From: Bacteroidales bacterium | GTDB lineage: Bacteria > Bacteroidota > Bacteroidia > Bacteroidales > UBA12077 | Length of the DNA: 64,000 bases | Direction: 5' to 3' | NCBI GenBank assembly: GCA_028282585.1 | Contig: JANQHR010000021.1 | Location: forward strand, 1-64,000 | Part shown: positions 1 to 20,789 of the stretch, piece by piece | How positions within the stretch are numbered: the first letter of the stretch is position 1 | Layout of the letters: every line of letters starts with the position of its first letter | Position numbers and translations under genes: made by a program | Notes under the pieces: model-generated | Databases searched by the model: none | What the model was told of the DNA's origin: nothing | The model's input: the letters and a program-made list of their open reading frames with translations, nothing else

Positions 1-420
1 CTATATATTATATATATTATTTATTTATAAATCTATTATATTAATAATGATATCCTGTTAATAATGTTACAAACTTCTGGTTATTTTTCTTGTTTATTAC
101 ATTTTCAAAACAATTTTAAAAGTGTATTAACAGTTATAACTTATCTTATGTTATTGAAAAATAAATAAATCCTAACTTTTTTAACAGGTTGTTAATAGCG
201 TTTTATATTAATAAGTTCTTTGTTAAAGTTTACACAATCTATGTTAAAAGTTTGTTCAATTTTAAGGAATCAAAACTAAAAAAATAATTTTGATATCAAT
301 TGAAAATTTTTATATAGTGTGGAGTAAGTTTCAAAACAAGCTAATATTATAATTTTTTATCGACTTTAATTAACATTGAATTAACAATAGAACATCAAAT
401 AATTAACACTGTATTAAATT
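1..420. other. Candidate replication origin (oriC): AT-rich tract plus degenerate DnaA-box-like array
   Basis: No ORF in the track; nearly pure A/T at 1-50; TGTTAATAA-like 9-mers on both strands at 56, 124, 178, 190, 221, 242, 367, 378, 400; TGTGGAGTA at 318; perfect parS ~5 kb away. Confidence 0.5.
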
Positions 421-554
421 ATCGTCATCTAATGCTCATTATTAGTTCTTAATATTTTATTAAAATCAACTAAAATTTAATTACAATTAAATTATTAAAT
501 ATTACATAAAACCAGCCAATTATGCATCCAAATAAAATATATGAATAAATTGGC

Positions 555-562
555 TAATTTTG
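555..562 (+). promoter_or_regulatory. Bacteroidota -7 promoter element for rpiB-rrf2
   Basis: TAATTTTG matches TAnnTTTG, 26 nt before the ATG; abuts an imperfect inverted repeat at 514-555. Confidence 0.5.
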
Positions 563-588
563 AGTTGTAAAATATTTAAAATTTAAAT

Positions 589-1029
589 ATGGAAAAAGTA
601 TCAATAGGAATTGCAGCAGATCATGCAGGATTTAATTTTAAAGAAAAATTGAAAGAAGAATTAATAAATCAAGGATATGAAATTAAAGATTATGGAACAT
701 ATTCTATAGAAAGTACAGATTATCCTGATTATGCGCATCCATTAGCAGAAGCTGTTGATAATAAAGAACACAAATTTGGAATTACGTTATGTGGTAGTGG
801 AAATGGAATTAACATGACAGCAAATAAATATCAAGGTATTAGAGCTGCATTATGCTGGAATACTGAAATATCAGAATTAGCCAGGTTACATAATGATGCT
901 AATATATGTTCATTACCAGCAAGATTCATTGATTTTAATTTAGCAAAAGAGATTGTAAATACATTTTTAAATACTAAATTTGAAGGAGGAAGACATTTAA
1001 GACGTATAGAAAAAATACCTATTCATTAA
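589..1029 (+). CDS. rpiB: Ribose-5-phosphate isomerase B
   Basis: ADHAG, DYPD, CGSGNG, ARLHNDAN, FEGGRH motifs. Confidence 0.97.
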   Translation: MEKVSIGIAADHAGFNFKEKLKEELINQGYEIKDYGTYSIESTDYPDYAHPLAEAVDNKEHKFGITLCGSGNGINMTANKYQGIRAALCWNTEISELARLHNDANICSLPARFIDFNLAKEIVNTFLNTKFEGGRHLRRIEKIPIH

Positions 1030-1040
1030 AATATATTGTT

Positions 1041-1484
1041 ATGTTATCAAGTACCTGTAAGTATGCTATTCGTGGCATTATTTATATTGCATTGGATAGT
1101 GAAAATAATAGAAAGATTGGTATTAAAGAAATATCAGAAGCTCTAGACATACCAACACCTTTTTTGGGAAAAATACTTCAAATTCTAGCAAAAAATAAAT
1201 TATTAAATTCTACAAAAGGACCAAATGGAGGATTTTCTTTGGCTAAACCGGCAAAAGAAATAAATTTACTGCAGATAATTCAAATTATTGATGGTTTAGA
1301 TTTATTTAATGAATGTTTAATTGGTTTAAGTTCTTGCTCTGCGAATAAGCATAACAATGTTCAATGTCCTATTCACAAAAAATATTTACCAATAAGTAAG
1401 CAACTATATACGATGTTTGAAAACGAAAATATTGAAGATCTGGGAAATCAAATTAAAGCTTCTGGCGGTAAAATATCATTATAA
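1041..1484 (+). CDS. Rrf2 family transcriptional regulator
   Basis: wHTH with FLGKILQIL and S.KGPNGGF.L; C-terminal C-x6-C-x9-CPIH. Confidence 0.92.
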   Translation: MLSSTCKYAIRGIIYIALDSENNRKIGIKEISEALDIPTPFLGKILQILAKNKLLNSTKGPNGGFSLAKPAKEINLLQIIQIIDGLDLFNECLIGLSSCSANKHNNVQCPIHKKYLPISKQLYTMFENENIEDLGNQIKASGGKISL

Positions 1485-1871
1485 ATACTTAATTAAGTTG
1501 AGTTTATTAAAAATAGGAAAAATAAATATTCCAAAAAAACTTCCAAAAATATTTGCTACTGCATCTGTTACTTCTGCAGATCTGTCATTAGTAAAATAAA
1601 ACTGAAATACTTCCATCATTAACCCATATGATATAACTAAAGTAAGTGTAATAATAATTCGTTCTATTCTTTTAAATTGACTATTCTTTCTTAATGCAAT
1701 AAAAAATAATAAGCTTAATGCGGCATACATTAAAAAATGCATTAACTTATCTATATTTTCAAATGTTAAAAGGTTGACTTTGTTTAAATTACTACTTGAG
1801 GTTAAACTACCATAACAAATAATTAAAGCAATTATAATTGGTTTCCAGTACTTTATAATTTTATTTAACAT
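1479..1871 (-). CDS. VanZ family membrane protein
   Basis: DKLMHFLMY, E..Q....R, DAVANIFG; four hydrophobic segments. Confidence 0.88.
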   Translation of the reverse strand: MLNKIIKYWKPIIIALIICYGSLTSSSNLNKVNLLTFENIDKLMHFLMYAALSLLFFIALRKNSQFKRIERIIITLTLVISYGLMMEVFQFYFTNDRSAEVTDAVANIFGSFFGIFIFPIFNKLNLIKYL

Positions 1872-1961
1872 ATTTTTATCTAGATCAATTTAAAGTTAAT
1901 TTAAAATTACTTCCTTGTTAATTATTTTTTTCATAACTTTTGAATCAGTAAAATTTTGGTT

Positions 1962-4900
1962 ATGAAAACTTCAGAGGCAAAGATTAAAAAAATACTTGAC
2001 CAATTAAAAAACGAAAATATAAAAACATGGTTCGATTTAGGATTATTTTTGGATCGTGTGAAAGAAAATAGAAAAGTACCACAAAAAAGATTTCTAGGAT
2101 CATATGATGATTTCAAAAGCTACATTTGTAAAAGTGATTTTGCCTTTTTAACCTATCAGTATTCAATTGATGGTGTAAGTATTGAGGTTGAAAAATATAC
2201 CAAGATATTTCAGAATAAATTTAAGGGATCAAATATTCATTATATAGCTGGAAAGTTTTATCCGGAAGCAAAAAAAATAGTGCCTAATTATGTAAAGAAA
2301 TTCGAATTGCCTCAAATCCAAGCGTTCGATGATTGGGAATTATATAAAGATTTTTATTTTACCAAATTAAAAAGAGGAAGTAAAGAATATAATGATTTAA
2401 TTGGTAAGTTTTGGAATCAAACGTTGGAAATAGTTGATAAACTGGGTAAGTATATTATAGAAAAGAGTATACGAATGCTTTATTTAATTAATGTATGTTC
2501 GAATCCAGGAAACGTTTCATTAAGTTTAGCTGTTGTATTGCTATCAGAATATTTAGGTATTCCTGTTATAAACAACAATCACGATTTTTATTGGGAAGGC
2601 GGTAGTAGAGAAATTGACAAAAGAAAAAAAGATTTAGCAGATGGACCAAGAGATTTCTTTTTTACAAACTCACATGTGGGAGAGTTCTTTTCTATAATTG
2701 AAATATTATTTCCTTGGGAATCAAGAATATGGATTAATGTAAATATCAATCAACAACAAAATGATCATCTAATAAAAGTTAATGGGCATAATCCTGCCAG
2801 GGTTATGGAAATTGGAACAGCTGTGGATACATCTGTTTTTAGAGACATTTCAAAAAGAAAAAAAATAAATACTTTCTATCAATTTGAAAAAATTTTAAGT
2901 AGATATTCTGATACACTGATCAGTTATTCAACCAAGGACGTAATTGAATCAGATTTAGTTTCTTCGGAAAATCCAAGACCAATATTAATTGGTGCCCGAA
3001 AAACAAAGCCATTAGAAAAATTCCTTAATGAAAATATTGTTTTTCTTCAACCAACAAGAATAATTTCAAGAAAAAGAATAGAAATTGGTTTTGAATTAAT
3101 AGAAAATTTATTTCAGGAAGATGAATTTTTTAAGCGATTTAAAGAAACGAAACATTTAAAACTTACCATTATAATTACCGGACCAATTGCAACAGGTCAT
3201 TATGAATATTTTAAAAGATTATTAAGAAAATACGATGAGTTATTGGATTCACTGGATGAAGAAATAAGAAATAAGATTTATTTAGCATTTCTGTTTAGTG
3301 AACTAGATAAACGAAAATTCAAAGAGCAATTCGAAAATCCAGTAGGAATACCTGAGCTATATAATATTGCATCATTAATATTGTTACCGAGTAAAACGGA
3401 AGGAAGAGGGCTTCCAATTATAGAAGCTACAGCTTGTGGAACTCCAATTTTTTGTAGTAGATACTATCCTGAAAACGTATATTCTGAGGTAATTGGTGAG
3501 CATTTACCTCATTCGGAAAGATTAAAGGTTATTGAATTTGATGGAAAAAATATAACCAAAAAACATGTACGAAAAATAGTTGAAAGAGTATTTTTTCCAC
3601 ATAGATTTTCAGGTGAGATATTTCAAAATCATCAGGTAGTTGATAAACGTTATAGTTTGGACGCTTTGCGTAACAATATCGATGCGATTTGTTATAGTAT
3701 GTTTCGGCAATTAAGATCAAATAAGAAATCACTAAATCTTGTAAAAAAGGCTATAAACGAATACAAAAACCTGTGTAACTATTCTAATAAAAACCTTAAA
3801 TCCATAATAAATACAGATAACCGGGAATATTTACCTGGATACGGGCGAATGAGATTTATGATAATGTTAAAATCTTTGATTGATCCTAGTTATTTCAGAG
3901 TAGAAGAACAGTTATTTCGTGGAATTGGATTTAACTATGCCAAAGAATTAGTTGAAAACAGAGTTGGTGACTTTAATGAGAAGCAAAAAATACATTTTTA
4001 TAATGCTGTAGAAGCAATATTTCTTTACAAAAATGGTGAAATAAATATTCGGCATGATCACTCATTACCTTATAGGCACAGAAATAAAAACAATTACCCT
4101 TATCAAGATTTTACTATTCAGGAACTAAGTGGATTAATAAACTTTATATACCATTTAATTTTTGAATCAAAGCAAAGAATTAAAATAAGAAAAAATGCAC
4201 ATTTCTTTACTGATATCGATTTAGCATTATCTCAATTAACTTCTAGTAAATATTTGGCAATTGATGATAGAAAAATTTTAATAAAAAAATTACAGTCAAA
4301 TGTTCCAATTGCATACTTTCCCGGAAAATATATCAAAAATGAATTGGAGTTTTTCGCTTTACAATCAGTACGCTCGCGATTAGAATTAGGAATTGAACAA
4401 GAATTGACTGAAAAGATAATTCAAGAAAATGGAAACTATATATCGCCAATTTTTATAATGGCCAGTAATGTAACTACTATAGAAAACTATAATAGTCAAA
4501 GTATTCGAGATTTTATTCTGGAAGGTAGAGACGAAGAATTATTACTATTGTATAAATATAAAATATTACAGGTTATCGATACAAAACAACTAAGTGTCGG
4601 AGTTCATTTTAATCAATTAGGTGATAAAGCTCTTTCAATTTTAAAAGAAATTAAAAAAGAAAATGGTTTTATAATATCTAATCGCCAGGATTCAGCTGTT
4701 ATGACTGATGTTGTTAATATAGATAGGTTTCATATTGGTAGAGTAGAGGATATGTGGACTGAGTCAATATTGGGGATTCCTATGGATAGTGGATTTATAC
4801 AGTTTGTTCCTGCTGGAATCAGAGCAACATTATCTTATCCTACACCTATACAAACTGCAAAAGAATTTAATGAATATTTAAAAGGTAAAGAATTCGAGTA

Positions 4901-6128
4901 TGCGGTTGAAAAATATGGAGAGAAAGAAATCTATGAACAATTAAGGAAAGATGCTGAAACGAAAATGTCTCCGATTAAAAAGGTTATTGAGGATTTATTA
5001 AATAAGGATAAGGAGCAAGATATTGTAAGCTACGAATTTGTTAGTGGAGTTTATAAAGATGGTATGCCTTGGAATGGTGTAATTGCAAAAGCACATTTAA
5101 GTAAAAATGGAAATTGGAAGTTTATTGCTAAATCAAGTGAAAAGACCAAAAAAGTAACAGAATTTGTAAACGAGTTGGAAAAAGAGGAGAGTAGGTTAGC
5201 GAAAATAGCATGGAATGGAGGTTATATTCTTAACGCAGAGTTGGTTGGAAAGTTGGGATTGCCGGAATCTTACATAGGATCACCGTTAGGATTGTTAATA
5301 TCCAATCGAAAATTATTAAGCGCACCTCTTTTTAACAAACCGGCTTTAATATTTCAAAATGGTAGTGTTAATATCTTAAGGGTAAATTGTTCAAAAGGTG
5401 TTATTGTTTCACGTGGAACAGATAGCATCGAACTTTCAGCAGATCAATACAATGTAAAACCAGAAAAAAACATACCTGTATTTTACGATTTGATGTTTGA
5501 TAAAGATGAAATTGAGATAGAAAATAGTGTTATTGTTAGATTAGCAGGAAATATAATTAAAGATGTTGTATATATTAATGATAAACAGAAGGTTAGTATT
5601 ATACCGGTCGGTTTAACTTTTGTTTTTCCAAAAGAACAATTCCCAAATACCTGGAAAGTTGATGACGAGTTAAATATTATAATTAATGGTTTAGAAAACA
5701 TTGATTATGCAGTAGAAGCAGGACCTATGTTGATTAAAAATGGTGAGCTTGTCTTAAATATGGAATTAGAAGGTTGGAAAACAAGAAACTCTATAAAAAC
5801 GCAAGCCGCGCGATTGGATTATACTGATATGCGAGGACCAAAAATCGCTGTAGGTATTAATAAGGAAGGCGATCTGATAGTACTTACAATAAATGGTCGA
5901 ATAAGAGAATCAGTAGGCGCTACTCATTATGATATGGCGGATATACTAAAAAGGTTCGATATCCAAACTGCAATGGGTTTTGACCCGGGAGGCAGCAGCA
6001 CTCTAGTAGTTAATGGACAAACATTAAATATTTCTCCTTACAATAGTCAATACGAAGAAAATGTTTATGCACTTCCACCTGAACCAAGAGCGGTTTCTAA
6101 CGTAATAATGGGGTACATTAATTCATAA
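1962..6128 (+). CDS. Multidomain protein: MggS-like GT4 glycosyltransferase + unknown middle region + NAGPA-type phosphodiester glycosidase
   Basis: DGVSIEVEK, HDFYWE, LQPTRIISRKRIE, EGRGLPIIEA (GT4); WNGGY, EAGPML, NGR..SVGAT, FDPGGSS, RAVSN (NAGPA). ATG at 1962 preferred over TTG at 1956. Confidence 0.85.
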   Translation: MKTSEAKIKKILDQLKNENIKTWFDLGLFLDRVKENRKVPQKRFLGSYDDFKSYICKSDFAFLTYQYSIDGVSIEVEKYTKIFQNKFKGSNIHYIAGKFYPEAKKIVPNYVKKFELPQIQAFDDWELYKDFYFTKLKRGSKEYNDLIGKFWNQTLEIVDKLGKYIIEKSIRMLYLINVCSNPGNVSLSLAVVLLSEYLGIPVINNNHDFYWEGGSREIDKRKKDLADGPRDFFFTNSHVGEFFSIIEILFPWESRIWINVNINQQQNDHLIKVNGHNPARVMEIGTAVDTSVFRDISKRKKINTFYQFEKILSRYSDTLISYSTKDVIESDLVSSENPRPILIGARKTKPLEKFLNENIVFLQPTRIISRKRIEIGFELIENLFQEDEFFKRFKETKHLKLTIIITGPIATGHYEYFKRLLRKYDELLDSLDEEIRNKIYLAFLFSELDKRKFKEQFENPVGIPELYNIASLILLPSKTEGRGLPIIEATACGTPIFCSRYYPENVYSEVIGEHLPHSERLKVIEFDGKNITKKHVRKIVERVFFPHRFSGEIFQNHQVVDKRYSLDALRNNIDAICYSMFRQLRSNKKSLNLVKKAINEYKNLCNYSNKNLKSIINTDNREYLPGYGRMRFMIMLKSLIDPSYFRVEEQLFRGIGFNYAKELVENRVGDFNEKQKIHFYNAVEAIFLYKNGEINIRHDHSLPYRHRNKNNYPYQDFTIQELSGLINFIYHLIFESKQRIKIRKNAHFFTDIDLALSQLTSSKYLAIDDRKILIKKLQSNVPIAYFPGKYIKNELEFFALQSVRSRLELGIEQELTEKIIQENGNYISPIFIMASNVTTIENYNSQSIRDFILEGRDEELLLLYKYKILQVIDTKQLSVGVHFNQLGDKALSILKEIKKENGFIISNRQDSAVMTDVVNIDRFHIGRVEDMWTESILGIPMDSGFIQFVPAGIRATLSYPTPIQTAKEFNEYLKGKEFEYAVEKYGEKEIYEQLRKDAETKMSPIKKVIEDLLNKDKEQDIVSYEFVSGVYKDGMPWNGVIAKAHLSKNGNWKFIAKSSEKTKKVTEFVNELEKEESRLAKIAWNGGYILNAELVGKLGLPESYIGSPLGLLISNRKLLSAPLFNKPALIFQNGSVNILRVNCSKGVIVSRGTDSIELSADQYNVKPEKNIPVFYDLMFDKDEIEIENSVIVRLAGNIIKDVVYINDKQKVSIIPVGLTFVFPKEQFPNTWKVDDELNIIINGLENIDYAVEAGPMLIKNGELVLNMELEGWKTRNSIKTQAARLDYTDMRGPKIAVGINKEGDLIVLTINGRIRESVGATHYDMADILKRFDIQTAMGFDPGGSSTLVVNGQTLNISPYNSQYEENVYALPPEPRAVSNVIMGYINS
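5405..5420. promoter_or_regulatory. parS site (ParB-binding centromere)
   Basis: TGTTTCACGTGGAACA, the exact reverse complement of canonical TGTTCCACGTGAAACA. Confidence 0.8.
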
Positions 6129-6132
6129 GAAA

Positions 6133-7260
6133 TTGGCAGGAATTTATTTACATATACCTTTTTGTAAAGGTAAATGCGCATATTGTGATTTTTATTCGGT
6201 AGGAAATATCAAACTTAAGAAAGATTTTGTCAAAACTATCTGCAAAGAAATTGAATTGCAAAAAGAATATTTAAGGAGTGAACCTATCCAAACGATTTAT
6301 TTTGGAGGAGGCACACCATCTTTACTTTCAGTGCAAGAACTCGAAGAAATTATTAATCGAATAATTAAATATTTTAATGTTGAAAAAAACAATGAAATTA
6401 CTGTAGAAGCAAATCCGGATGATTTAACAAAAGAATACTTAAACGGAATTAAAGAAGTTGGAGTTAATAGGCTAAGTATTGGTATACAGTCATTTAATAA
6501 TAATGATTTATTAAGAATGAAAAGAAAGCATTCTGTACGTCAAGCAATAAGATCAGTAAGATATGCACAGGAGCAAGGATTTAAAAATATAAGTATTGAT
6601 TTAATTTATGGTTTACCGGATTTAAGTTTACAAAAATGGGAAGAAAATATTGAGCAAGCATTAAATTTGAATGTACAACATATTTCAGCCTATCATTTAA
6701 CCATTGAACCAAAAACCCTATTTTATAAATATTATCGAAATAATAGTTTTGTTCCGCCTTCTGAAGATGAAAGCTTAGATCAGCTCAAAAAACTAATTGA
6801 AAAAACCGAACAAAAGGGTTTTTTGCATTATGAAATTTCCAATTTTGCTAAAGATGGATTTCTTTCATTGCACAATACTAATTACTGGATGGGCGTAAAA
6901 TATTTAGGATTAGGACCTTCTGCACATTCATATAATTTAACTTCACGACAGTGGAATATTCAAAATCTTCGTGGCTATATAGATGAGATATTCAAAGGAA
7001 AAATACCATTCGAAGAAGAAAACTTATCTCCGAATGAAAAATTTAACGATTATTTGATAACGTCATTAAGAACGATGTGGGGAATAAATACTAAAAAAAT
7101 TGAACACGAACATGGAATAAATTTTAAAACACACTTCGAAGAAAAATCGGATAACTTTTTAAAAGCAAATTTTTTGTCAAAATCCGGGAATAATTATAAA
7201 TTGACAAAAAAGGGGATGTTTATTTCTGATCATATCATTTTATCATTTCTTAACGATTAA
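6133..7260 (+). CDS. hemW: Radical SAM heme chaperone HemW
   Basis: YLHIPFC-x3-C-x2-CDF, GGGTPS, YEISNFA, HN..YW; TTG start. Confidence 0.93.
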   Translation: MAGIYLHIPFCKGKCAYCDFYSVGNIKLKKDFVKTICKEIELQKEYLRSEPIQTIYFGGGTPSLLSVQELEEIINRIIKYFNVEKNNEITVEANPDDLTKEYLNGIKEVGVNRLSIGIQSFNNNDLLRMKRKHSVRQAIRSVRYAQEQGFKNISIDLIYGLPDLSLQKWEENIEQALNLNVQHISAYHLTIEPKTLFYKYYRNNSFVPPSEDESLDQLKKLIEKTEQKGFLHYEISNFAKDGFLSLHNTNYWMGVKYLGLGPSAHSYNLTSRQWNIQNLRGYIDEIFKGKIPFEEENLSPNEKFNDYLITSLRTMWGINTKKIEHEHGINFKTHFEEKSDNFLKANFLSKSGNNYKLTKKGMFISDHIILSFLND

Positions 7261-7262
7261 TT

Positions 7263-10181
7263 ATGAAATCAAAACTGGAACTATCGGAGCGGGAAGAGCA
7301 GTTAAGTATGGCACTTGTGGGTGCCAATTTGGGTATGTGGGATTGGAACATGGAAAATAATTCAATAAAAATAAATGAGTTATGGGCAAAAATGCTTGGT
7401 TATAATATAACTGAACTAGGTGGATATACTATTACGTTTGAAGCCTGGAAAAAAATGGTGCATCCAGAGGATTTTAATAAAACTATAGAGCTTTTTAACA
7501 AACATATATCAGAAAAGACAGAGATCTATGAGGCAGAGTTTCGAATGAAACATAAAAATGGTCATTGGATTTGGATTTTAGCACGTGGAAAAGTTATGAA
7601 GTGGGAATTAGGGGAACCGAAAAGAGCTTTGGGTACACACTTAGATATAACCAAAACAAAGTTAGCTGAAATTCAACTTAGGGAAAGCGAAGAAAAAGCA
7701 AGGCTTTTATTTGAAAAATCTAATGATCCAATATTATTGATTGACGGATTTAATTTTATCGAATGCAATGATGCAGCAATTAATTTATTGAAGTTTAATT
7801 CAAGAGAAGAAATATTTAAAACTCATCCTTCGGAACTTTCTCCTAAGTATCAACCAGATGGCAAACCATCATTTGATAAAGCTCAGGAAATGATGGATAT
7901 TGCTTACAAAAAAGGATATCACCGTTTTGAGTGGGTACACTTAAATAGAGAAGGAAAAAAAATGCTAATGGATGTTGCACTTACAAAAGTACCATATCAA
8001 GGAAAGAATATGATTTTTACTGTATGGCGTGACATAACAAAACAAAAGGAATATGAAAGTTCACTAATTGAAAGTGAAAAACGTTATAGTACATTATTTG
8101 AGCAAGCAGCAGACGGTATTTTGGTGAGCATAAAAGATGGTGAAATTATTGGGGTAAATCAAAGCATTTGTCGACTTTCAGGATACGAAAGAAAAGAATT
8201 AATAGGAAAAAACATATCTATTTTATTCGATGTTAAGGAATTAAATAATAACCCATTAAGATATGATCTGGTAAAAAAAGGAGATACGGTTGTAAGAGAA
8301 AGAGAACTAATTCGAAAAGATGGAAAGAAAGTTTTTACTGAAATGAATACAAAAATTCTTGAAGATGGTAGAGTACAGACTCTATTCAGAGATATGTCGG
8401 AAAGAATACAAGCGGAAAATATACTTCGCGAAAATGAAGAAAAGTATCGATTACTTTTTGAGAATGCAAATGATGCTATTTTTTTGATGAACAATGAAAT
8501 ATTTATTGATTGTAATCAGAAAACATTGGAAATGTTTGGTTGTAAAAAGGAAGATATAATTGGACAACCTCCTTACAAATTTAGTCCAAAAATTCAACCA
8601 AATGGAGAAAAATCAAAGGAGAAAGCCTTACAGAAAATCAAACAAGCCTTAAATGGTGAAGGAAGAACTTTTGAATGGGTGCATAAAAAACTTGATGGAA
8701 CAGAATTCTATGCAGAAGTGAACTTAAATATTTTTACTTTTCATGAGAAAAGAAGAATTCAGGCTATAGTAAGAGATATAACTGAAAGAAAAGAAGCAGA
8801 AATCGCATTAAAAAATAGTGAAGAAAAGTATCGTATGTTAATTGAAGGACAAAGTGATATGGTTATTAAAATTGACCCAACGGGAAAATTTTTGTTTGTA
8901 AGCCCTTCATATTGTGAGATATTTGGAAAAAAGGAAAATGAACTGCTTGGAAAAAGGTTCTTGCCTTTAGTACATCAAGATGATAAAGAGCATACCAAAA
9001 ATGAGATGAAAAAGCTTTTTAAACCTCCTTATACTTGTTATATAGAACAACGAGCAAAAACAAAAAATGGATGGAAATGGTTGGCTTGGGCGGATAAATC
9101 AATACTGGATGAAAAAGGAAATATTATTGAAATTATTGGTGTTGGAAGAGATATTACGGAAAAGAAAATTGCTGAAAAACTTAGAATAGAAAGCGAGGAA
9201 AAACTTAACAATATTTATCAAAGCAGTTCTGATATAATATTGATAATTAATAAAAGCGGAAAAATGATAAGCACTAATAAAGCAATAGAAAAGCATTTAG
9301 GATATTCAACTAAAGAAATTATAGGAAAATCACCTAAAAAAATTGTTAAAAAATCAAGTTGGAAAACTGTGGATGATAGAATTAATAAAATATTGAATGG
9401 TGAAAAAGTTCTTGCGCATGAAGTTATTATGGTTTCAAAAAAAGGAGAAGAAATACCTTTTGAAGGAAATAGTAAATTAATTAATTACGAAGGTAGGAAG
9501 GCTATTTTATCAATAATCCGAAATATTAAGGAAAGAAAGGAGTTAGAACAACGCATTTTTGACGTAATGATAGAAACAGAAGAGAAAGAAAGGCAAAGAC
9601 TTGCAAGTGATATTCATGATGAGGTTGGTCCATTATTGTCCAGCTTAAAAATGTATATTGAAATGTTAAATCAGAATAATGAAAAGCAAGACTATATTAA
9701 AAGGAAATTAAAAGAGATAGTAAAAGAAACAATTAATAACGTGCGTGAAGTATCAAATGCTTTAAGTCCTAATGTTTTGAATCAGTATGGTTTAGTTTCT
9801 GCAATAAAATCATTTATTTTTAATCAAAAAGAAATTGTTGATATTAATTTTGACAGTAAAATAAACGAAGAAAGGTTTGGAGTGAAAATTGAAACAGTTT
9901 ATTATAGGATTATAAAAGAGCTGATAAACAACACATTAAAGCATGCAAAAGCAAAGAAAATTAACATAAATCTCGAAATCGAAAAAGAAAATTTAATATT
10001 AACATATGAAGATGACGGAATTGGTATTAATTTAAAAACTTTAAAAAAGAACAAAACAAACGGTTTGGGTTTAAGTAATATAGAAAATAGAATAAAAACA
10101 ATTAATGGTAAATTTTCAATAACTTCCGAAAAGAATAAAGGATTTAAATTTGAATTATTAACCGAAGTAAAACATTTATAA
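7263..10181 (+). CDS. Cytoplasmic multi-PAS sensor histidine kinase (HisKA_3 type)
   Basis: About six PAS/PAC repeats ending in DIT/DMS/NIK; ERQRLASDIHDEVG; NNTLKHA, DDGIG, GLGL; no TM helix. Confidence 0.93.
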   Translation: MKSKLELSEREEQLSMALVGANLGMWDWNMENNSIKINELWAKMLGYNITELGGYTITFEAWKKMVHPEDFNKTIELFNKHISEKTEIYEAEFRMKHKNGHWIWILARGKVMKWELGEPKRALGTHLDITKTKLAEIQLRESEEKARLLFEKSNDPILLIDGFNFIECNDAAINLLKFNSREEIFKTHPSELSPKYQPDGKPSFDKAQEMMDIAYKKGYHRFEWVHLNREGKKMLMDVALTKVPYQGKNMIFTVWRDITKQKEYESSLIESEKRYSTLFEQAADGILVSIKDGEIIGVNQSICRLSGYERKELIGKNISILFDVKELNNNPLRYDLVKKGDTVVRERELIRKDGKKVFTEMNTKILEDGRVQTLFRDMSERIQAENILRENEEKYRLLFENANDAIFLMNNEIFIDCNQKTLEMFGCKKEDIIGQPPYKFSPKIQPNGEKSKEKALQKIKQALNGEGRTFEWVHKKLDGTEFYAEVNLNIFTFHEKRRIQAIVRDITERKEAEIALKNSEEKYRMLIEGQSDMVIKIDPTGKFLFVSPSYCEIFGKKENELLGKRFLPLVHQDDKEHTKNEMKKLFKPPYTCYIEQRAKTKNGWKWLAWADKSILDEKGNIIEIIGVGRDITEKKIAEKLRIESEEKLNNIYQSSSDIILIINKSGKMISTNKAIEKHLGYSTKEIIGKSPKKIVKKSSWKTVDDRINKILNGEKVLAHEVIMVSKKGEEIPFEGNSKLINYEGRKAILSIIRNIKERKELEQRIFDVMIETEEKERQRLASDIHDEVGPLLSSLKMYIEMLNQNNEKQDYIKRKLKEIVKETINNVREVSNALSPNVLNQYGLVSAIKSFIFNQKEIVDINFDSKINEERFGVKIETVYYRIIKELINNTLKHAKAKKININLEIEKENLILTYEDDGIGINLKTLKKNKTNGLGLSNIENRIKTINGKFSITSEKNKGFKFELLTEVKHL

Positions 10182-10186
10182 ATAAA

Positions 10187-10549
10187 ATGAACATATTAAT
10201 AGTTGATGATAATAAGGAATTCCGTAGTGCTTTTAAATTTATGTTAATGGAGAATTTTAGTGATAGGTATGATGAAATTTATGAAGCGGAAAATGGAGCA
10301 GAAAGTTTGAAGATTGTTCAAAATTATTCAGTAGACATCGTTTTTATGGACAAACGAATGCCTGTAATGGATGGAGTAAATGCAACTCAAAAAATAGTTG
10401 ATCAATATAGAAATATTAAAATAATTGCACTTTCGTTCCATTCTGAACTGGAAGACATTAAAACCATGTTAGAAGCAGGTGCAAGAAACTACATAATTAA
10501 AGAAGAAATAACACCTGATATTATATCTAAATGTCTTGATTTTATTTAG
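10187..10549 (+). CDS. Single-domain response regulator (receiver only)
   Basis: ILIVDD, VFMDKRMPVMDG, GARNYIIK; no output domain. Confidence 0.92.
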   Translation: MNILIVDDNKEFRSAFKFMLMENFSDRYDEIYEAENGAESLKIVQNYSVDIVFMDKRMPVMDGVNATQKIVDQYRNIKIIALSFHSELEDIKTMLEAGARNYIIKEEITPDIISKCLDFI

Positions 10550-11825
10550 TAGCAATATTGATTAATTCGATAAGTTTTTCTTCTAAAGTATCATAAGAAA
10601 AATACTTTTTACCTAATGCGTAATTATATTCGGCGATTTCTTTGTTTAACGTATCATTGTAAATAACCCCTTGTATTTCTTTTAAAGCTTCGTCAGTAAT
10701 CACATTATCATCGAGCATAACAGTTTTGAAACCTTTACTTCCTATGTCCGGCCAATAAACAGGTTTATAGTTATTTACAAAAATCGGTCTTTTTGCTAAA
10801 ACTGCTTCTACAAAAGCATTTCCAAAACCCTCGTATGTACTAAAATATGTACATGCCCGGGCGTGTGCATAGGCATCGGATAATGAATAAGATCTGCCGG
10901 TAGTATTTATTGAATGACTTTTCGAAGAAAAACTATGGTAAACAAACAACACTTGCCTGCTTAATTTCAAATCATGAATTAAATCTACTAAATCCATATA
11001 GTACTCACTTCCAGCGTCATCTGCATAGTTGCCGGTAATTATTAACTTAATTTTATCATTTTGAAGTTTATCAATTAACTTTATTGCAGTTTCAATACCT
11101 TTACGGCGAACAATTCGTGTAATTTGAAATAGCAGAATATCGTCCTTCTCAACACCCAGGTCTTCTCTGATATTTTTGTTATGATCAGTAATTAATCCAA
11201 AAGGTTTAGTAAAATCCATAACATTAGGAACTACTACAGAATCTCGGTTAAACTTTTCTTTTAATGTGTCTTGTGCATATAAGTTTATTACAGCGTGATA
11301 ACTGTTTGGTAATCGAAGAGGGAACTCATTCTCCACTAATTCGTTAATTTTAGGATGCGGAGAAACATATCTATCTCCGCGTTCCCATGCAAAATCATGA
11401 TCATGAGTAATAATTGGCTTGTTAGTTTTTATAACTGCATTTTTTATAGCAATTCCCATAGAAATATGTGAAGGTAAGCAAGAAGCGTTTTCGGATATTA
11501 GCAATTCAATATCGTATTGGTGTATCCATTTAACAATCTTATCTTCAATAACTTTTACATAAAGTTGAAGATGTTCAATTAATTCATCCTGGTTAAAGTC
11601 TGGCTGAAAAAATGCTTTTTTTTGTTCCCAATAACTTTCCGGTGAAAAAAAAGACATTTCAGGTACTCTTGTTTCATGGGTTACATCAATTTTACGGCCT
11701 TCAAATTGACCGGATATGATATATATTTCATGCCCCATCTTCTGAAAAACTTCAATCCATTTTTCTGTTTCCAGTGCTACGCCATCAACGCCACCAATTC
11801 TCCCTATTATAATGCCAATTTTCAT
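10542..11825 (-). CDS. GT4 glycosyltransferase, mannosylglucosylglycerate synthase (MggS)-like
   Basis: DGVALETEKW, HDFAWER, VVVPNVMDF, QITRIVRRKGIE, EGFGNAFVEA resemble Thermotogales MggS as recalled. Confidence 0.8.
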   Translation of the reverse strand: MKIGIIIGRIGGVDGVALETEKWIEVFQKMGHEIYIISGQFEGRKIDVTHETRVPEMSFFSPESYWEQKKAFFQPDFNQDELIEHLQLYVKVIEDKIVKWIHQYDIELLISENASCLPSHISMGIAIKNAVIKTNKPIITHDHDFAWERGDRYVSPHPKINELVENEFPLRLPNSYHAVINLYAQDTLKEKFNRDSVVVPNVMDFTKPFGLITDHNKNIREDLGVEKDDILLFQITRIVRRKGIETAIKLIDKLQNDKIKLIITGNYADDAGSEYYMDLVDLIHDLKLSRQVLFVYHSFSSKSHSINTTGRSYSLSDAYAHARACTYFSTYEGFGNAFVEAVLAKRPIFVNNYKPVYWPDIGSKGFKTVMLDDNVITDEALKEIQGVIYNDTLNKEIAEYNYALGKKYFSYDTLEEKLIELINIATK

Positions 11826-11920
11826 AATTACTGTATTTATTAAATTGTAAAGTTAAGAATACTACCTTTATTATTGAATTAATCAATTAAATTTGTATTT
11901 AATCTATAATTAGAAAGAGC

Positions 11921-12313
11921 ATGAAATGGATTTTAAATATTTCGTTCTTAATTATGCTAAATATAGCAGGTTTTAGTCAAGAAGTCAATTCATGTTATAT
12001 AGAAGTTGATTGCCAGGATTTTAATCTGATTATGAAAAATAAAAATCCTTTTATTGTTGACGTAAGATTTCAAAGGGCTTACAAAAAAGAAAGAATAACA
12101 GGAGCTCAAAATGCAACTGATAAAATAGCTCTTAAAGTGTTATTAAATAATGTTGATAAAGATAAGATCGTATTAGTTTATTGCAAAGAAGGAAAACGAA
12201 GTAGAACAGCTAGCGAAATTATCTGTAATGACCTTAATTTTAAAAATGTCTATACCTTAAATAATGGTTTTAAGGATTGGAAAAAGAAGGGATATCCAAC
12301 AAAACTAAATTAA
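11921..12313 (+). CDS. Exported rhodanese-like domain protein
   Basis: Signal peptide; IVDVR, VYCKEGKRS, L.NGFKDW. Confidence 0.88.
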   Translation: MKWILNISFLIMLNIAGFSQEVNSCYIEVDCQDFNLIMKNKNPFIVDVRFQRAYKKERITGAQNATDKIALKVLLNNVDKDKIVLVYCKEGKRSRTASEIICNDLNFKNVYTLNNGFKDWKKKGYPTKLN

Positions 12314-12325
12314 AATTAATTGCGG

Positions 12326-12667
12326 TTAACTCGTAGCCTTTTCTTCTGTTGTATTACTTTGTTCTTTTTCGCCCCCTTTATTTTTTGTAATTCCATACTC
12401 TTTTTTGTATTCGTCAAGAATATTTTTGAGCTTGGTTATTTCTGATGTATTATCAGAAATTGTTGTTTTTAGCTTTTTAATGGTTGGATATGAAAGTAAT
12501 AAACCAACAAAAATACCGATTATCACTGTAATAAGTAAAATTAGGGATAGTGATCCCTTAACTGGATTCCCAATAATAAAATCCAACTCAACAGGTATAC
12601 TATTCCTTAAAGCGAATATTACTAAAACGAGCGCTGATAATAAGCCAATTATGAGTGATCTTTGCAT
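12326..12667 (-). CDS. LapA / DUF1049 family membrane protein
   Basis: Two TM helices with FALRN..V.L.F, then a coiled coil. Confidence 0.8.
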   Translation of the reverse strand: MQRSLIIGLLSALVLVIFALRNSIPVELDFIIGNPVKGSLSLILLITVIIGIFVGLLLSYPTIKKLKTTISDNTSEITKLKNILDEYKKEYGITKNKGGEKEQSNTTEEKATS

Positions 12668-12677
12668 AAATTTAGTT

Positions 12678-15600
12678 TTAAATGTAAATGTACTGATTTA
12701 TTTTTTCAAATAAAACGTCTTTATCCAGTGGTTTTGACATGTAATCATCACATCCGTTTTGTAGACAAACCTCCCGATCGTTATACATTGCATATGCAGT
12801 TTGAGCGATTACGCGTAAATTCGGATTAATTTCTTTAATTTGCTGCGTTGTTTCAAAACCATTAATATCAGGCAATCGAATATCCATTAAAACTACTTTT
12901 ATATGTTTATTTGATTGTACTGCTTCAATAGCTTCAGATCCACTACGTGCAATAATAACTTGTGCACCGAACTTTACTAAAAATCGTCTCAATAATTCAA
13001 GATTATCGTTGTCATCTTCAACAACTAAAACGTGCACATTTTCTAAATTTTTCATTTTGACAGCTGCTTTAAATTCATTGCGTTTAGGCTCCTTAGAGCC
13101 AGTAGTATGACTAATCGGTATAGTGAAATAGAATGTACAACCTCCCTGAATCTTACTCGATGAATCTTCTGGATATGAATCAAACCAAATTTCACCATTT
13201 AATAACTCTATTAGTCCTTTAGAGATAGCTAAGCCAAGTCCTGTTCCTTGTTGATTATTGTGCTTTTTAGTTTCTAATTGTCCAAACCGTTCAAAAATTA
13301 TGTTCTGCATGTTTTTATTAATACCAATTCCTGTATCCGAAACAAAAAATTGATAATCATATCTTTCATCTTTTTTAACTATCGAATATCCAAAACTAAT
13401 TGATCCCGATTCTGTAAATTTAAACGCATTACTGAGCAAATTGTTGAAAATTTGCTTTAAGCGCGAATCATCTGTAAAAATAGTATTAGTCTTACCTGAA
13501 GGAATCTTGAGAATAAATTTAATATCCTGTTTTTTATGTCTATTCTGATGTTCGAAAAACATTTGATAAATTTCTTCCAAGAGCGGATTTATTTCAAATA
13601 TCTTCTTATTAACGGATAGTTGTCCTGCTTCAATTTTTGCAATATCAATGATATCGTTTATTAAATTAAGTAACTGCTTTCCATTAGAGTCGATAATTTT
13701 TAAATATTCTAATCTTTCCTGATTAGAAATGTCTTCATCCTTTAGAAGTTCCGCAAAACCTAATATACCGTTCATTGGTGTACGTATTTCATGCGACATA
13801 TTAGCTAAAAAGGCCGATTTTAGTTTATCACTTTCTTCTGCTTTTTCTTTGGCTTCCAATAAATCGGTCATTAATTTTTTTTGCCTGGTAATGTCACTTG
13901 CAATACCAGCACGGCGATATAATTTACCATTCGAATCGAAAACAGGAAAGGTTCTAATCCATAACCATCGAATTTCACCATTTGGTTTTATCATACGGTG
14001 TTCATAAAAATGATTTTTATATAGATACTGCAAATTATGTTTTCTTTGATCAACTATTTTTTCTCGGTCTTCAGGATGAATCCAGTTTTTATAAGAATTA
14101 AAATCTTCAAAAATTTCTTTAAATCTTTCTCCAACAATTTTATAGCAAGCACGGTTTGCATAAATGACTTTTTGATCTAAAGATCTTAACCAAAATGCAT
14201 CATTAATATTTTCAGATAATTGGCGAAAATTTTCCTTAGTTATTTCTAACTGTTGTTGAGTCTTTTTAAGATCTGTAATATTTACAATTAGTCCTCTTAT
14301 TCCGGTAACGTTATTATCGGTTTTGATAACATTTGAATATACAAGTATAGGAAACCTTTTTCCGTTTTTTGTAATTGCTGTATATTCTTCTCCTGGTAAA
14401 TTTTCTTTTTTGTGTAAAAGACTAATGTTTTTTTGTGCTCTTGCAATTTCTTCAGGAGCTAGCAATTGAACAAAATGTAAACCATTATCCAGATCTTTTG
14501 GAAGGTACTCAAAAATTTCAAAAGCTTTTAAATTAACAAACGTAATATTTCCGTGAATATCTGTTTCAAAAATTACCTCAGGAAGCAATGTTGCAAGAGA
14601 TTTAAATTTTTCTTCACTTTCTTTAAGTTTCTGTTCTGAAACTTTAATGCTCGTAATATCTGTTTGTATCCCAATTGCGCGAATTGGAGATCCGTCAGAA
14701 TCACGCCGAACAATTTTACCATGAGTGAGAATCCATTTCCATTTTCCGGATTTAGTTTTCATTCGCACTTCAGCGTTGAAAAACTCTGTTTTTCCATTAA
14801 TATGATCTTCAAGTTTACCTACAGCAGCAGGAACATCTTCCGGATGGGCAATTTTAACGGTAAAATCATAATTAATTACAATTTCATCAGGATTATATTC
14901 AAACATTCTATACCATTCAGGACTATAATAAATCAAATCTTCTTTTACATTCCAATCAATTAAGGCCTGACTTGCACTTTCCATAGCAAGTTTTAACCGA
15001 CTTTCACTTTCCTCCAGTTTTAACCAAACCTCTTTTTCTTCTTGAATGATTCTAACTAGGCCAACTAGTTTAAGAGGCTCTGAACTTTTGTCCCAATTGA
15101 TAATTCTTCCTGTAGCTTTTAACCAGGTCCAGCTACCTTTTTTATGTTTAACTCTAAATTCAAGATTTAAAGCTGCTTTTATTCTCCGAGCATGTTTAGT
15201 GATTAACTCTTGTGCTTTTTTATAATCTTCCGGATGAATTAAATTACCTGTTTTTTGTGATAATTCATCAAATTCTGATTTATCATATCCTAATGCTAAA
15301 TACAACTCGCTGAGAACAGATATTTTGTAAGTTTTAAGATCAATTTCAAAAGAAAAATAACTAGCAGCTTCCATAGCAATTTGAAGCTTTTCACGATGTT
15401 CTTTTAATTCAAATTCTTTATTTTTTGAAATGGTTTCATCAACATAGATACTTACTATTTCATTATCTGTAAGCTTATAAATATAATTTTGTTTCCATTC
15501 AATAAATTTACCTGATGAAAATGCAATTGCAGGAAACTCTTCAGCCTTGTTTTGTTTAAATACGCGCTGTAATGCATCCAAGAATCCAGAGGCTTTAACA

Positions 15601-15881
15601 GATGGGAAAACATTGATTAGATTTTTACCAGTTATTTTATCACGATTCACTTTTTCAAGCTCTTCAGCTTTTTTATTGAAATATTTAATAATAAAGCTTT
15701 TTCCATTATCTTTTGATTCAAAAAGTGCAATAGCATTTTTCGAATATTCACAAATCTCAAAAAATAATGTTGGATTTATATCATTAGTTGCTTTTGAATA
15801 TCTAGATTTTAAATAGCTTATATCGTTCTCTAGAGTAGTAATCCTATCCTGCAATTCTTCATATGAAGGCAGATTTTCCAT
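12678..15881 (-). CDS. Hybrid multi-PAS sensor histidine kinase/response regulator
   Basis: Several PAS/PAC domains; FLANMSHEIRTPMNG, NAFKFT, DTGIG, GTGLGL; C-terminal receiver VLMDIRLP. Confidence 0.95.
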   Translation of the reverse strand: MENLPSYEELQDRITTLENDISYLKSRYSKATNDINPTLFFEICEYSKNAIALFESKDNGKSFIIKYFNKKAEELEKVNRDKITGKNLINVFPSVKASGFLDALQRVFKQNKAEEFPAIAFSSGKFIEWKQNYIYKLTDNEIVSIYVDETISKNKEFELKEHREKLQIAMEAASYFSFEIDLKTYKISVLSELYLALGYDKSEFDELSQKTGNLIHPEDYKKAQELITKHARRIKAALNLEFRVKHKKGSWTWLKATGRIINWDKSSEPLKLVGLVRIIQEEKEVWLKLEESESRLKLAMESASQALIDWNVKEDLIYYSPEWYRMFEYNPDEIVINYDFTVKIAHPEDVPAAVGKLEDHINGKTEFFNAEVRMKTKSGKWKWILTHGKIVRRDSDGSPIRAIGIQTDITSIKVSEQKLKESEEKFKSLATLLPEVIFETDIHGNITFVNLKAFEIFEYLPKDLDNGLHFVQLLAPEEIARAQKNISLLHKKENLPGEEYTAITKNGKRFPILVYSNVIKTDNNVTGIRGLIVNITDLKKTQQQLEITKENFRQLSENINDAFWLRSLDQKVIYANRACYKIVGERFKEIFEDFNSYKNWIHPEDREKIVDQRKHNLQYLYKNHFYEHRMIKPNGEIRWLWIRTFPVFDSNGKLYRRAGIASDITRQKKLMTDLLEAKEKAEESDKLKSAFLANMSHEIRTPMNGILGFAELLKDEDISNQERLEYLKIIDSNGKQLLNLINDIIDIAKIEAGQLSVNKKIFEINPLLEEIYQMFFEHQNRHKKQDIKFILKIPSGKTNTIFTDDSRLKQIFNNLLSNAFKFTESGSISFGYSIVKKDERYDYQFFVSDTGIGINKNMQNIIFERFGQLETKKHNNQQGTGLGLAISKGLIELLNGEIWFDSYPEDSSSKIQGGCTFYFTIPISHTTGSKEPKRNEFKAAVKMKNLENVHVLVVEDDNDNLELLRRFLVKFGAQVIIARSGSEAIEAVQSNKHIKVVLMDIRLPDINGFETTQQIKEINPNLRVIAQTAYAMYNDREVCLQNGCDDYMSKPLDKDVLFEKINQYIYI

Positions 15882-19526: not shown

Positions 19527-19543
19527 GTCAATTCAATTTCAAT

Positions 19544-20788: not shown

Positions 20789-20789
20789 T

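Follow-up and report, generated by a model that had tools for sequence, protein, structure and literature searches.

The window analysed here, a 64,000-nucleotide stretch of contig JANQHR010000021.1 (Bacteroidales bacterium, lineage UBA12077; GenBank assembly GCA_028282585.1), carries a gene designated BIG, whose product unites a GT4-type glycosyltransferase (GT) domain, a long middle region and a C-terminal NAGPA/DUF2233-type domain. A smaller gene located 4.4 kb downstream of it, designated GT4s, encodes a stand-alone GT4 paralogue and was found to be the only conserved partner of BIG. We tentatively propose, giving the proposal somewhat less than even weight, that these two genes may constitute a self-contained cytoplasmic glycoside pathway, in which the last domain of BIG would cleave a sugar-1-phosphate-type bond of a sugar other than N-acetylglucosamine (GlcNAc). 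The features concerned are the following:

1962..6128, forward strand: the whole BIG gene, 1388 amino acids plus the stop codon, with an alternative TTG start at 1956.
1962..2138, forward strand: N-terminal extension, residues 1-59, with the motif TWFDLGLFLD; the small paralogue lacks it.
2139..3731, forward strand: MggS-like GT4 (GT-B) domain, residues ~60-590, assigned by Pfam, by NF041101 and by the motifs DGVSIEVEKY (70-79), HDFYWEGG (207-214), QPTRIISRKRIE (363-374) and E-x7-E (480-488).
3759..4256, forward strand: conserved segment without an assignable family, residues ~600-765, with the motifs NREYLPG (620-626), LKSLIDPSYFRVEE (636-649), HDHSLPYRHRN (698-708) and TIQEL (718-722).
4257..5018, forward strand: DUF89/ARMT1-like core, with homology over residues ~766-945, from profile comparisons.
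5019..6125, forward strand: NAGPA/DUF2233-type (PF09992) domain, residues ~1020-1388, assigned by Pfam, by profiles and by the motifs AWNGGYILN (1083-1091), RGPKIA (1291-1296), INGRIRESVGATH (1310-1322), DPGGS (1341-1345) and PEPR (1373-1376).
10542..11825, reverse strand: GT4s, the 427-residue stand-alone MggS-like GT4 paralogue, with an intact E-x7-E motif and co-inherited with BIG.

The BIG frame runs from the ATG at 1962 through all 1388 codons without an internal stop, in a region of about 28% G+C, which bears out the single uninterrupted reading frame claimed by a first-pass annotation of this DNA. A protein search returned 856 relatives at E ≤ 1e-3, and among the matches listed, the best 120 of the 856, identity ranged from 54 to 94% and lengths were almost all between 1378 and 1419 residues, mostly about 1385-1395; with so many relatives, those listed being of near-equal length, the frame is far beyond chance. 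The only source names given to the listed relatives were the generic ‘phosphodiester glycosidase family protein’ and ‘glycosyltransferase’. The N-terminus of BIG is charged and its most hydrophobic 19-residue window (residues 185-203, Kyte-Doolittle 1.97) lies within the N-domain of the GT part; therefore, by a simple hydropathy scan rather than a dedicated predictor, no signal peptide or membrane helix was evident, as had been claimed before, and from hydropathy alone BIG is predicted to be a cytoplasmic protein. Residue conservation is given below as counts over 146 distinct full-length members of the BIG family, numbered as in the window. In the N-terminal extension, W23 and D31 of the TWFDLGLFLD motif were invariant in the family alignment and D25 nearly so. 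An Rfam scan of window positions 1-13000 gave no match at E ≤ 0.1, and a scan for promoters and terminators gave no enrichment relative to shuffled sequences.

In the GT domain, Pfam Glycos_transf_1 (PF00534) matched residues 458-503 of BIG with 36 bits against a gathering score of 26.4, and the same model matched GT4s with 50 bits. The E-x7-E motif and an Arg/Lys pair of the C-terminal Rossmann domain are the defining features of GT4 enzymes. In the BIG family both glutamates, E480 and E488, were conserved in 144 of the 146 members each, R366 in 143, K371 in 139 (with Arg in another five) and H207 in 140, and the same GT4 motifs were invariant in 23 GT4s sequences. Residues 72-223 and 357-573 of BIG align with the two halves of GT4s at 28% identity each, BIG being ∼65 residues longer between the halves (residues 224-356). 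The mean pairwise identity of the GT part in the family was ∼0.48, with 17-23% of the columns at least 90% conserved. Judged by these motifs, both the GT domain of BIG and GT4s should be active glycosyltransferases. The resemblance to MggS noticed in the first-pass annotation held in so far as the MggS model NF041101 represents the best-scoring named family for this domain, but the score of 56.9 bits over residues 356-574, like the 234.2 bits obtained for GT4s, is far below the equivalog cut-off of 640. Thus, BIG and GT4s appear to be relatives of MggS rather than equivalogs, and no donor or acceptor can be transferred to them from MggS. In their own genome (98.35% complete), BIG and GT4s were the only matches to NF041101.

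The C-terminal domain was recognized by Pfam NAGPA (PF09992) over residues 1231-1382 with 71.9 bits (cut-off 25; E 9.8e-20). When a profile of 26 C-terminal domains was compared with the Protein Data Bank (PDB), profile positions 91-345 matched 5h3k, the DUF2233 protein Slr0280, with an E value of 6.4e-14, and further matches, vertebrate NAGPA included, were 6u11 (5.7e-9), 6pku (5.4e-7) and 3ohg (6.5e-5). Because the profile matches 5h3k, the NAGPA structures and 3ohg, the whole of residues ∼1100-1388 can be regarded as DUF2233-like. The numbering of human NAGPA was transferred by counting along the aligned 6pku sequence, a count that lands on T260, E226-T227 and R316. In human NAGPA, the substitutions D286A, G288A, G289A and S290A, as well as substitutions of R316, abolish activity (PMC13474241). 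The equivalent of D286 is D1341 (142/146) and that of the phosphate-binding R316 is R1376 (140/146); G288 and G289 correspond to G1343 and G1344 (141/146), and S290 to S1345 (143/146). The first loop glycine, G287, is replaced by P1342, with Pro in 140 of the 146 members, so that four of the five loop residues are kept and the loop reads DPGGS instead of DGGGS. As the amide of G287 contacts GlcNAc in the human enzyme (PMC13474241), a proline, which has no amide hydrogen, could not make this contact. Furthermore, the equivalent of the GlcNAc-reading E226 falls in column 1279, which is variable (Arg in 52, Lys in 40, Ala in 18, among others), and of E226, T227 and G287 only T227 is retained (T1280, 137/146). 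Basic residues surround the phosphate subsite (R1313 146/146, R1315 143, R1291 145, K1294 140), the equivalent of T260 falling between R1313 and R1315. Residues 1231-1388 were the most constrained part of the protein, with a mean pairwise identity of 0.60 and 37% of the columns at least 90% conserved. By alignment, then, BIG appears to keep the NAGPA catalytic pair and most of the loop, and we predict that the site is active and cleaves the C1-O bond of some sugar that is not GlcNAc, with a strongly anionic leaving group. The motifs reported in the first-pass annotation, TEGRGLPIIE (479-488), RGPKIA (1291-1296), INGRIRE (1310-1316) and FDPGGS (1340-1345), were all found at these positions, and its central idea of a GT4 domain fused to a NAGPA-type domain in the cytoplasm is supported by the intact GT4 motifs and the retained Asp and Arg of the NAGPA-type site.

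The region between these two domains, previously described as ∼450 unassignable residues, could be assigned in part. PF01937 (DUF89) did not match BIG itself, and no protein of its own genome matched this model at E ≤ 0.01. A distant family member, P0188, did match it (E 1.6e-9, 37.8 bits against a cut-off of 25), as did two others weakly, and a profile of 42 middle regions of the family aligned over 148 columns with nine canonical DUF89 proteins from Bacteroidota genomes (76.7% probability, E 2.1e-5). The middle profile of the close clade alone gave no signal against the canonical DUF89 set, and the top match of the middle-region profile in the PDB was the DUF89 protein 2g8l, at a non-significant E value of 0.12. 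Three alignments shared one register, in which CDNAGE is placed opposite FPGKYIK, INDA opposite IENY, and KGxxNF/KGDANY opposite NRQDSA. In Schizosaccharomyces pombe Duf8901, the catalytic residues are the nucleophile D248, N249, the metal ligand D286 and the general base D363 (PMC9062747). The corresponding residues of BIG are G788 for the nucleophile, K789 for the Asn, N842 for the metal Asp and Q909 for the general base. The last placement is based on motif spacing and on the motif KGDxNY, which we take to be that of the canonical enzymes. Position 788 is Gly in 136 of the 146 members and Asp in four, and positions 789, 842 and 909 are variable. The canonical phosphatase site therefore does not appear to be under selection in the BIG family, and residues ∼766-945 probably represent a remote DUF89/ARMT1 homologue devoid of the canonical catalytic residues.

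For residues ∼600-765 the earlier description stood: hhalign gave no DUF89 signal for this segment, its profile found no relative in the PDB (best E 0.41), and an ESM Atlas search with residues 600-1020 gave no usable match. Nevertheless, the most strongly conserved motifs of the middle region fall within this segment: D699 and T718 were present in all 146 members, R705 in 144, R621 in 143, R707 in 142 and H700 in 140, and farther along the middle region D768 was found in 142 and D916 in 144, against a mean pairwise identity of 0.41 for the region and 11% of its columns at least 90% conserved. Because residues 600-765 and D768/D916 are so strongly conserved, the description ‘dead phosphatase’ fits the old site only, and a new binding or catalytic site in the middle region is possible.

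The partnership of BIG and GT4s became evident from a comparison of 401 genomes of the window's order, the results of which are given as counts and not as statistics since kin are not independent. Full-length BIG was present in 23 of these genomes, and all 23 carried a GT4s orthologue of at least 56% identity, often on another contig. Conversely, 26 genomes carried such an orthologue and 23 of them had BIG; of the remaining three, G291 carries part of BIG at the end of a contig, in G036 the contig ends at hemW, and G127 is without BIG. All five Marinifilaceae genomes searched, three of which bear species or culture-collection names, likewise carried GT4s away from BIG, at 63-64% identity. Two genomes of the window's own genus lacked both genes, and in them RpiB, Rrf2, VanZ, HemW, the PAS kinase and the response regulator were still collinear, the VanZ-HemW interval measuring 329 bp in one of them. 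This genome-wide co-occurrence, together with the joint absence from an intact backbone, indicates that gain and loss affect BIG and GT4s jointly, at two separate sites, the flanking genes being backbone.

Open reading frames were called and clustered in 160 BIG loci, 80 from genomes and 80 from metagenomes. The co-inherited GT4 paralogue had been missed in the first-pass annotation. The Bacteroidales loci showed the order RpiB-Rrf2-(VanZ)-BIG-HemW-...-GT4s. Among the 96 loci with this synteny, GT4s was one gene away in 36 and farther away in 24, and 35 loci did not contain it; 17 of these 35 extend for at least 3 kb to either side of BIG. In one further locus (L030) GT4s seemed to be adjacent, which was dismissed as an artefact of a split BIG. 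Outside this synteny (64 loci), GT4s was located directly upstream of BIG on the same strand in 21 loci, directly downstream in two, one gene away in two and farther away in one, and in only three of the 38 loci without it did the sequence extend for at least 3 kb on both sides. The intergenic gap of adjacent GT4s and BIG genes had a median of ∼41 nt (range −17 to 255). No neighbour other than GT4s recurred in the non-Bacteroidales loci. HemW, RpiB, Rrf2 and VanZ were considered as partners and rejected, as they are collinear in genomes without BIG and GT4s and absent from the non-Bacteroidales loci.

BIG has a wide but scattered distribution. On contigs sampled at one genome per species, 394 of 405 pattern matches encoded a BIG relative. 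According to the record labels, most of the holders were uncultured members of the Bacteroidales, Marinilabiliales and Marinifilaceae; among those in culture were Marinifilum fragile JCM 15579, M. caeruleilacunae JC070, Ancylomarina longa and other Marinifilum strains, and other labels were Chlorobiota, Anaerolineales, Cyclobacteriaceae and one Thiohalospira metagenome-assembled genome (MAG). A search with residues 580-1388 against 1.84 billion representatives gave 1157 matches at E ≤ 1e-3 and 90 at 1e-30, with full-length relatives down to ∼25% identity, some of which were labelled Oligoflexia, Candidatus Shapirobacteria and Myxococcota. Within the window's order, the C-terminal domain was present in 27 of the 401 genomes, in four of them as a stand-alone frame of 370-397 residues and in 23 within a BIG-type frame; 21 of the latter were 1348-1441 residues long and two (G176 and G208) were cut short on small contigs. 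Since presence is scattered across genomes and genera (23 of 236 genera of the order, and two of four genomes of the window's own genus), BIG can be regarded as an accessory, patchily inherited trait. In a midpoint-rooted tree of 40 BIG sequences, those from Bacteroidota formed one clade, outside of which were placed the operon-type sequences, including that from Anaerolineales. BIG was found in none of 200 other sampled genomes of the class to which the Anaerolineales genome belongs, for which reason the Anaerolineales GT4s-BIG cluster may have been acquired by transfer or may result from mis-binning.

Natural variants provided further information on the relationship between the domains. In four deep lineages (P0136, P0150, P0186 and P0188) the E-x7-E motif is kept while both D1341 and R1376 are lost, and conserved columns that changed in at least three of the four numbered 32 of 95 in the C-terminal domain, five of 105 in the GT part and two of 46 in the middle region. 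As these lineages lose the C-terminal site and keep the GT motif, GT function can evidently stand without the C-terminal chemistry. P0188 is also the sole member with near-canonical DUF89 motifs. Two proteins of ∼1560 residues, P0192 and P0201, combine the DUF89-like region and the C-terminal domain, with the loop reading DGGGS and DGGSS, respectively; their N-terminal ∼850 residues show no recognizable GT motif, and P0192 has Asp at the position of the DUF89 nucleophile. Two others, P0228 and P0231 (900-955 residues), consist of the N-terminal and middle regions and end ahead of the NAGPA-type domain. A Pfam search at E ≤ 1 with these last four proteins and four other variants added nothing. 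From these architectures, the three modules of BIG appear to evolve semi-independently. Presence of the middle motif ‘DH..R.R’ and of DPGGS was correlated in a cross-table (137/2/1/6), with a Fisher p of 1.6e-8 that is overstated because kin are not independent; as only two of the 46 middle columns change in at least three of the four decayed lineages, this coupling is suggestive only. Stand-alone relatives of the C-terminal domain, 371-388 residues long and without a signal peptide by eye, were observed directly upstream of GH97 genes in two genera belonging to a single family of the order (L095, 8481-11898; L097, 823-3975). These paralogues were rejected as a guide to BIG, their motif being degenerate (LNPDGQ for FDPGGS).

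A metabolic context for the pair was found in two closely related Anaerolineales MAGs (L062, 7866-23121; L078), where GT4s precedes BIG with stop and start codons abutting, and where a LacI regulator, a sugar ABC transporter, a GH13_18-like phosphorylase and a third MggS-like GT4 follow. The phosphorylase was nearest to 7qqj (5.9e-48) and matched the glucosylglycerol phosphorylase 7xdq at 5.4e-44. MggS-type GT4 enzymes make glycoside solutes, and in Rhodopirellula baltica an operon contains an MggS homologue, the phosphatase MggB and a sucrose phosphorylase, the MggS homologue having shown no activity in that study (PMC3736172).

Taken together, we infer a pathway in which the two MggS-like retaining GT4 units, one in BIG and one in GT4s, would each transfer a sugar from a nucleotide sugar and so build on a common metabolite. 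The NAGPA-type domain would then act on an intermediate or on the product, cleaving the C1-O bond between a non-GlcNAc sugar and a phosphate-type leaving group, or a C1-O bond adjoining some other anionic group, with the retaining, substrate-assisted chemistry of the uncovering enzyme. NAGPA itself cleaves the C-O bond with retention in a substrate-assisted manner, GlcNAc-1-phosphate alone being turned over slowly (PMC13474241). The middle region may be a relic of a DUF89 phosphatase that has moved past the canonical Asp-phosphate mechanism and would now serve as a module for binding a phosphorylated ligand or as a scaffold, or it might supply a new site from its invariant Asp, His and Arg residues. 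The product would be a small, probably anionic or phosphorylated glycoside, perhaps a compound of the compatible-solute type. What the sequence comparisons show is the identity of the domains, the state of their catalytic residues, the cytoplasmic character (by hydropathy) and the partnership with GT4s; how the steps follow one another, which substrates are used, whether one molecule is built and then uncovered, as the first-pass annotation supposed, and whether it serves as an osmolyte belong to the inferred part of the scheme.

Several observations weigh against this scheme. In the genome G127, which is 99% complete, GT4s is retained and the interval between VanZ and HemW is cleanly devoid of BIG. 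The MggS equivalog model gives scores of 56.9 for BIG and 234 for GT4s against 640. In at least four deep lineages the GT is evidently kept without the ‘uncovering’ step. The DGGGS loop, called strictly invariant (PMC13474241), is by alignment DPGGS in BIG. Finally, the Anaerolineales context comes from two closely related genomes only, and the window's own genome, 98.35% complete, contains no sucrose-phosphorylase-like gene.

The decay of the C-terminal site in lineages that keep the GT is what would be expected if degradation were optional, and BIG could accordingly be a synthase and hydrolase in one chain, with GT units that attach sugar to an anionic aglycone and an NAGPA-type domain that hydrolyses the resulting glycoside, the end product itself, so that one protein sets the level of a solute or signal. 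The carboxylate or phosphate of the aglycone would take the substrate-assisting role, and since an anionic group by the glycosidic oxygen is all that retaining, substrate-assisted cleavage of the C-O bond requires (PMC13474241), the additional conserved Arg and Lys residues around the site would suit such a substrate. However, synthesis and hydrolysis in one chain amount to a futile cycle unless regulated, searches of Pfam and NCBIfam revealed no regulatory domain, and the C-terminal domain, being the most conserved of all, looks more like the seat of an obligatory step than of an optional one; we regard this alternative as rather unlikely. The loss of the C-terminal site in some lineages, the altered DGGGS loop and the missing DUF89 catalytic residues would also agree with the GT being the only catalytic part and the other two domains serving for binding, regulation or oligomerization, but the retention of the C-terminal Asp, Arg, Ser and Gly in 140-143 of the 146 members, in the most conserved domain of the protein, is hard to reconcile with a mere scaffold, which makes this quite unlikely. 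It is very unlikely, in our opinion, that the NAGPA-type domain is itself a transferase, which in the manner of a phosphorylase or GlgE would pass a sugar from a sugar-1-phosphate-type donor to an acceptor hydroxyl, the module thus performing three transfers. An SNi-like front-face mechanism is the one proposed for retaining glycosyltransferases. Such a mechanism has been put forward for NAGPA as well (PMC13474241), and the DPGGS change together with the altered sugar-reading residues would be consistent with a remodelled site. In two Anaerolineales genomes, moreover, the module adjoins a GH13_18-like phosphorylase. This family yields glucose-1-phosphate. On the other hand, that context is not conserved elsewhere, the window's own genome lacks such a phosphorylase, and no PF09992 member that transfers to an acceptor was found in the literature searches, which is a weak negative.

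Polyprenyl-phosphate-linked sugars are natural sugar-1-phosphodiesters facing the cytoplasm, many GT4 enzymes use lipid-linked acceptors, and a capsule/exopolysaccharide (EPS) locus is situated 13 kb from BIG in the window. A role at the inner face of the membrane, in building or releasing a lipid-linked glycan, is nevertheless highly improbable: no membrane segment or amphipathic anchor was seen in BIG, the GT family closest to it, that of MggS, is soluble, and the EPS locus is not conserved beside BIG, the module moving as two genes without envelope genes. Participation in an anti-phage or other conflict system is scarcely tenable. The model ‘GT4 in conflict systems’ (PF20706) gave a weak match (E 0.0017; 17.8 bits, below the cut-off of 26), but the same GT4 stretch was better matched by generic GT4 models, no PADLOC model matched BIG or GT4s, and the neighbours are housekeeping genes. 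A bolder version of the two-gene glycoside pathway, which we consider unlikely, would be that the middle region (D699/H700/R705/R707/T718) and the DPGGS-bearing NAGPA-type domain form a new cytoplasmic catalytic unit for glycosyl-phosphate chemistry, for example a retaining non-Leloir transfer from a sugar-1-phosphate, and that together with the two GT4 units the two-gene module would make an undescribed glycoside or phospho-glycoside in marine-sediment Bacteroidales and several other phyla.

With regard to the remaining genes of the window, the HemW-type radical-SAM gene (6133-7260, forward strand) starts 4 nt past the BIG stop codon and gave a weak PADLOC match to PDC-M51A (E 1.8e-8), which looks like generic radical-SAM similarity. 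Between hemW and GT4s, a multi-PAS histidine kinase and an adjacent single-domain response regulator are encoded (7263-10549, forward strand), and a second PAS hybrid kinase of 1067 residues lies at 12678-15881 on the reverse strand. Reading frames of 1156, 414 and 449 residues at 16056-22139 (reverse strand) seem, from their translations, to encode an RND efflux pump together with the membrane-fusion and outer-membrane components that go with it. The long capsule/EPS locus, the adjacency of which is not conserved in other BIG loci, occupies 25310-54626 on the reverse strand and includes a NusG-like regulator, Wza/Wzc-type export, a flippase, GT4 glycosyltransferases, an initiating sugar transferase, a sulfotransferase and an asparagine-synthase-like gene, as well as a nonulosonic-acid pathway with two NeuB-type synthases, a UDP-GlcNAc 2-epimerase, a cytidylyltransferase and PglD- and DegT-type genes.

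Although each of the three domain families of BIG is known, there is no description of the way in which they are combined, of the DPGGS variant, of the remodelled DUF89 region or of the obligatory GT4 partner. Full-text literature searches, with relevance judged by title or abstract, revealed no description of a GT4-NAGPA fusion, in agreement with the earlier statement that no protein of this architecture has been characterized; a search for Slr0280 found nothing relevant, and one for compatible solutes of Marinifilum found nothing on the solute chemistry of the genus. In the literature searched, NAGPA-type enzymes have one reaction, in animals, and their bacterial relatives are without an assigned reaction. 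BIG is predicted to be a cytoplasmic member of this group in which both catalytic residues are intact and the GlcNAc-reading residues have changed, and it is tied to two GT units in a two-gene module present in about 400 species genomes. Once its product has been worked out, a bacterial PF09992 domain would for the first time have a metabolic role, and the function left to a DUF89 domain that has lost its phosphatase site would become apparent; a new sugar compound of sediment bacteria may also come to light. For natural comparisons one can turn to the same-genus pairs with and without BIG and to the lineages whose C-terminal site has decayed.

Compared with known systems, BIG and GT4s share with MggS (NF041101), the best named family for both, the soluble, retaining, small-molecule type of GT4, and BIG alone has in addition the N-terminal extension, the ∼65-residue longer mid-part of the GT domain and two further domains. 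The R. baltica operon likewise brings together an MggS-like GT4 and a phosphate-removing enzyme, with a GH13_18-type phosphorylase as in the Anaerolineales loci; there, however, the enzymes are encoded by separate genes, the phosphatase is of the HAD type, and there is no NAGPA-type domain (PMC3736172). With NAGPA and the bacterial DUF2233 proteins (6pku, 6pki, 6u11, 5h3k, 3ohg), BIG has in common a homologous C-terminal domain, the Asp, the Arg, the loop Ser and two Gly, but those proteins are secreted or membrane-tethered whereas BIG is predicted to be cytoplasmic and is fused; in contrast to NAGPA, it has DPGGS, lacks the conserved GlcNAc-reading Glu and carries extra Arg/Lys at the phosphate subsite, and its substrate is certainly not a lysosomal-enzyme glycan. 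To the DUF89/ARMT1 phosphatases (PF01937; 2g8l; S. pombe Duf8901) it is related by remote homology over residues ∼766-945, without the nucleophile Asp, the Asn, the metal Asp or the general-base Asp of these enzymes. Sucrose-phosphate synthase, in which the SPP-like domain at the C-terminus is inactive, is one of several synthase-phosphatase fusions of solute pathways. BIG resembles them in that its GT4 domain precedes a domain of phosphatase fold in which catalysis has apparently been lost, and differs from them in that the fold is DUF89 and not HAD, in the third, NAGPA-type domain and in the obligatory second GT4.

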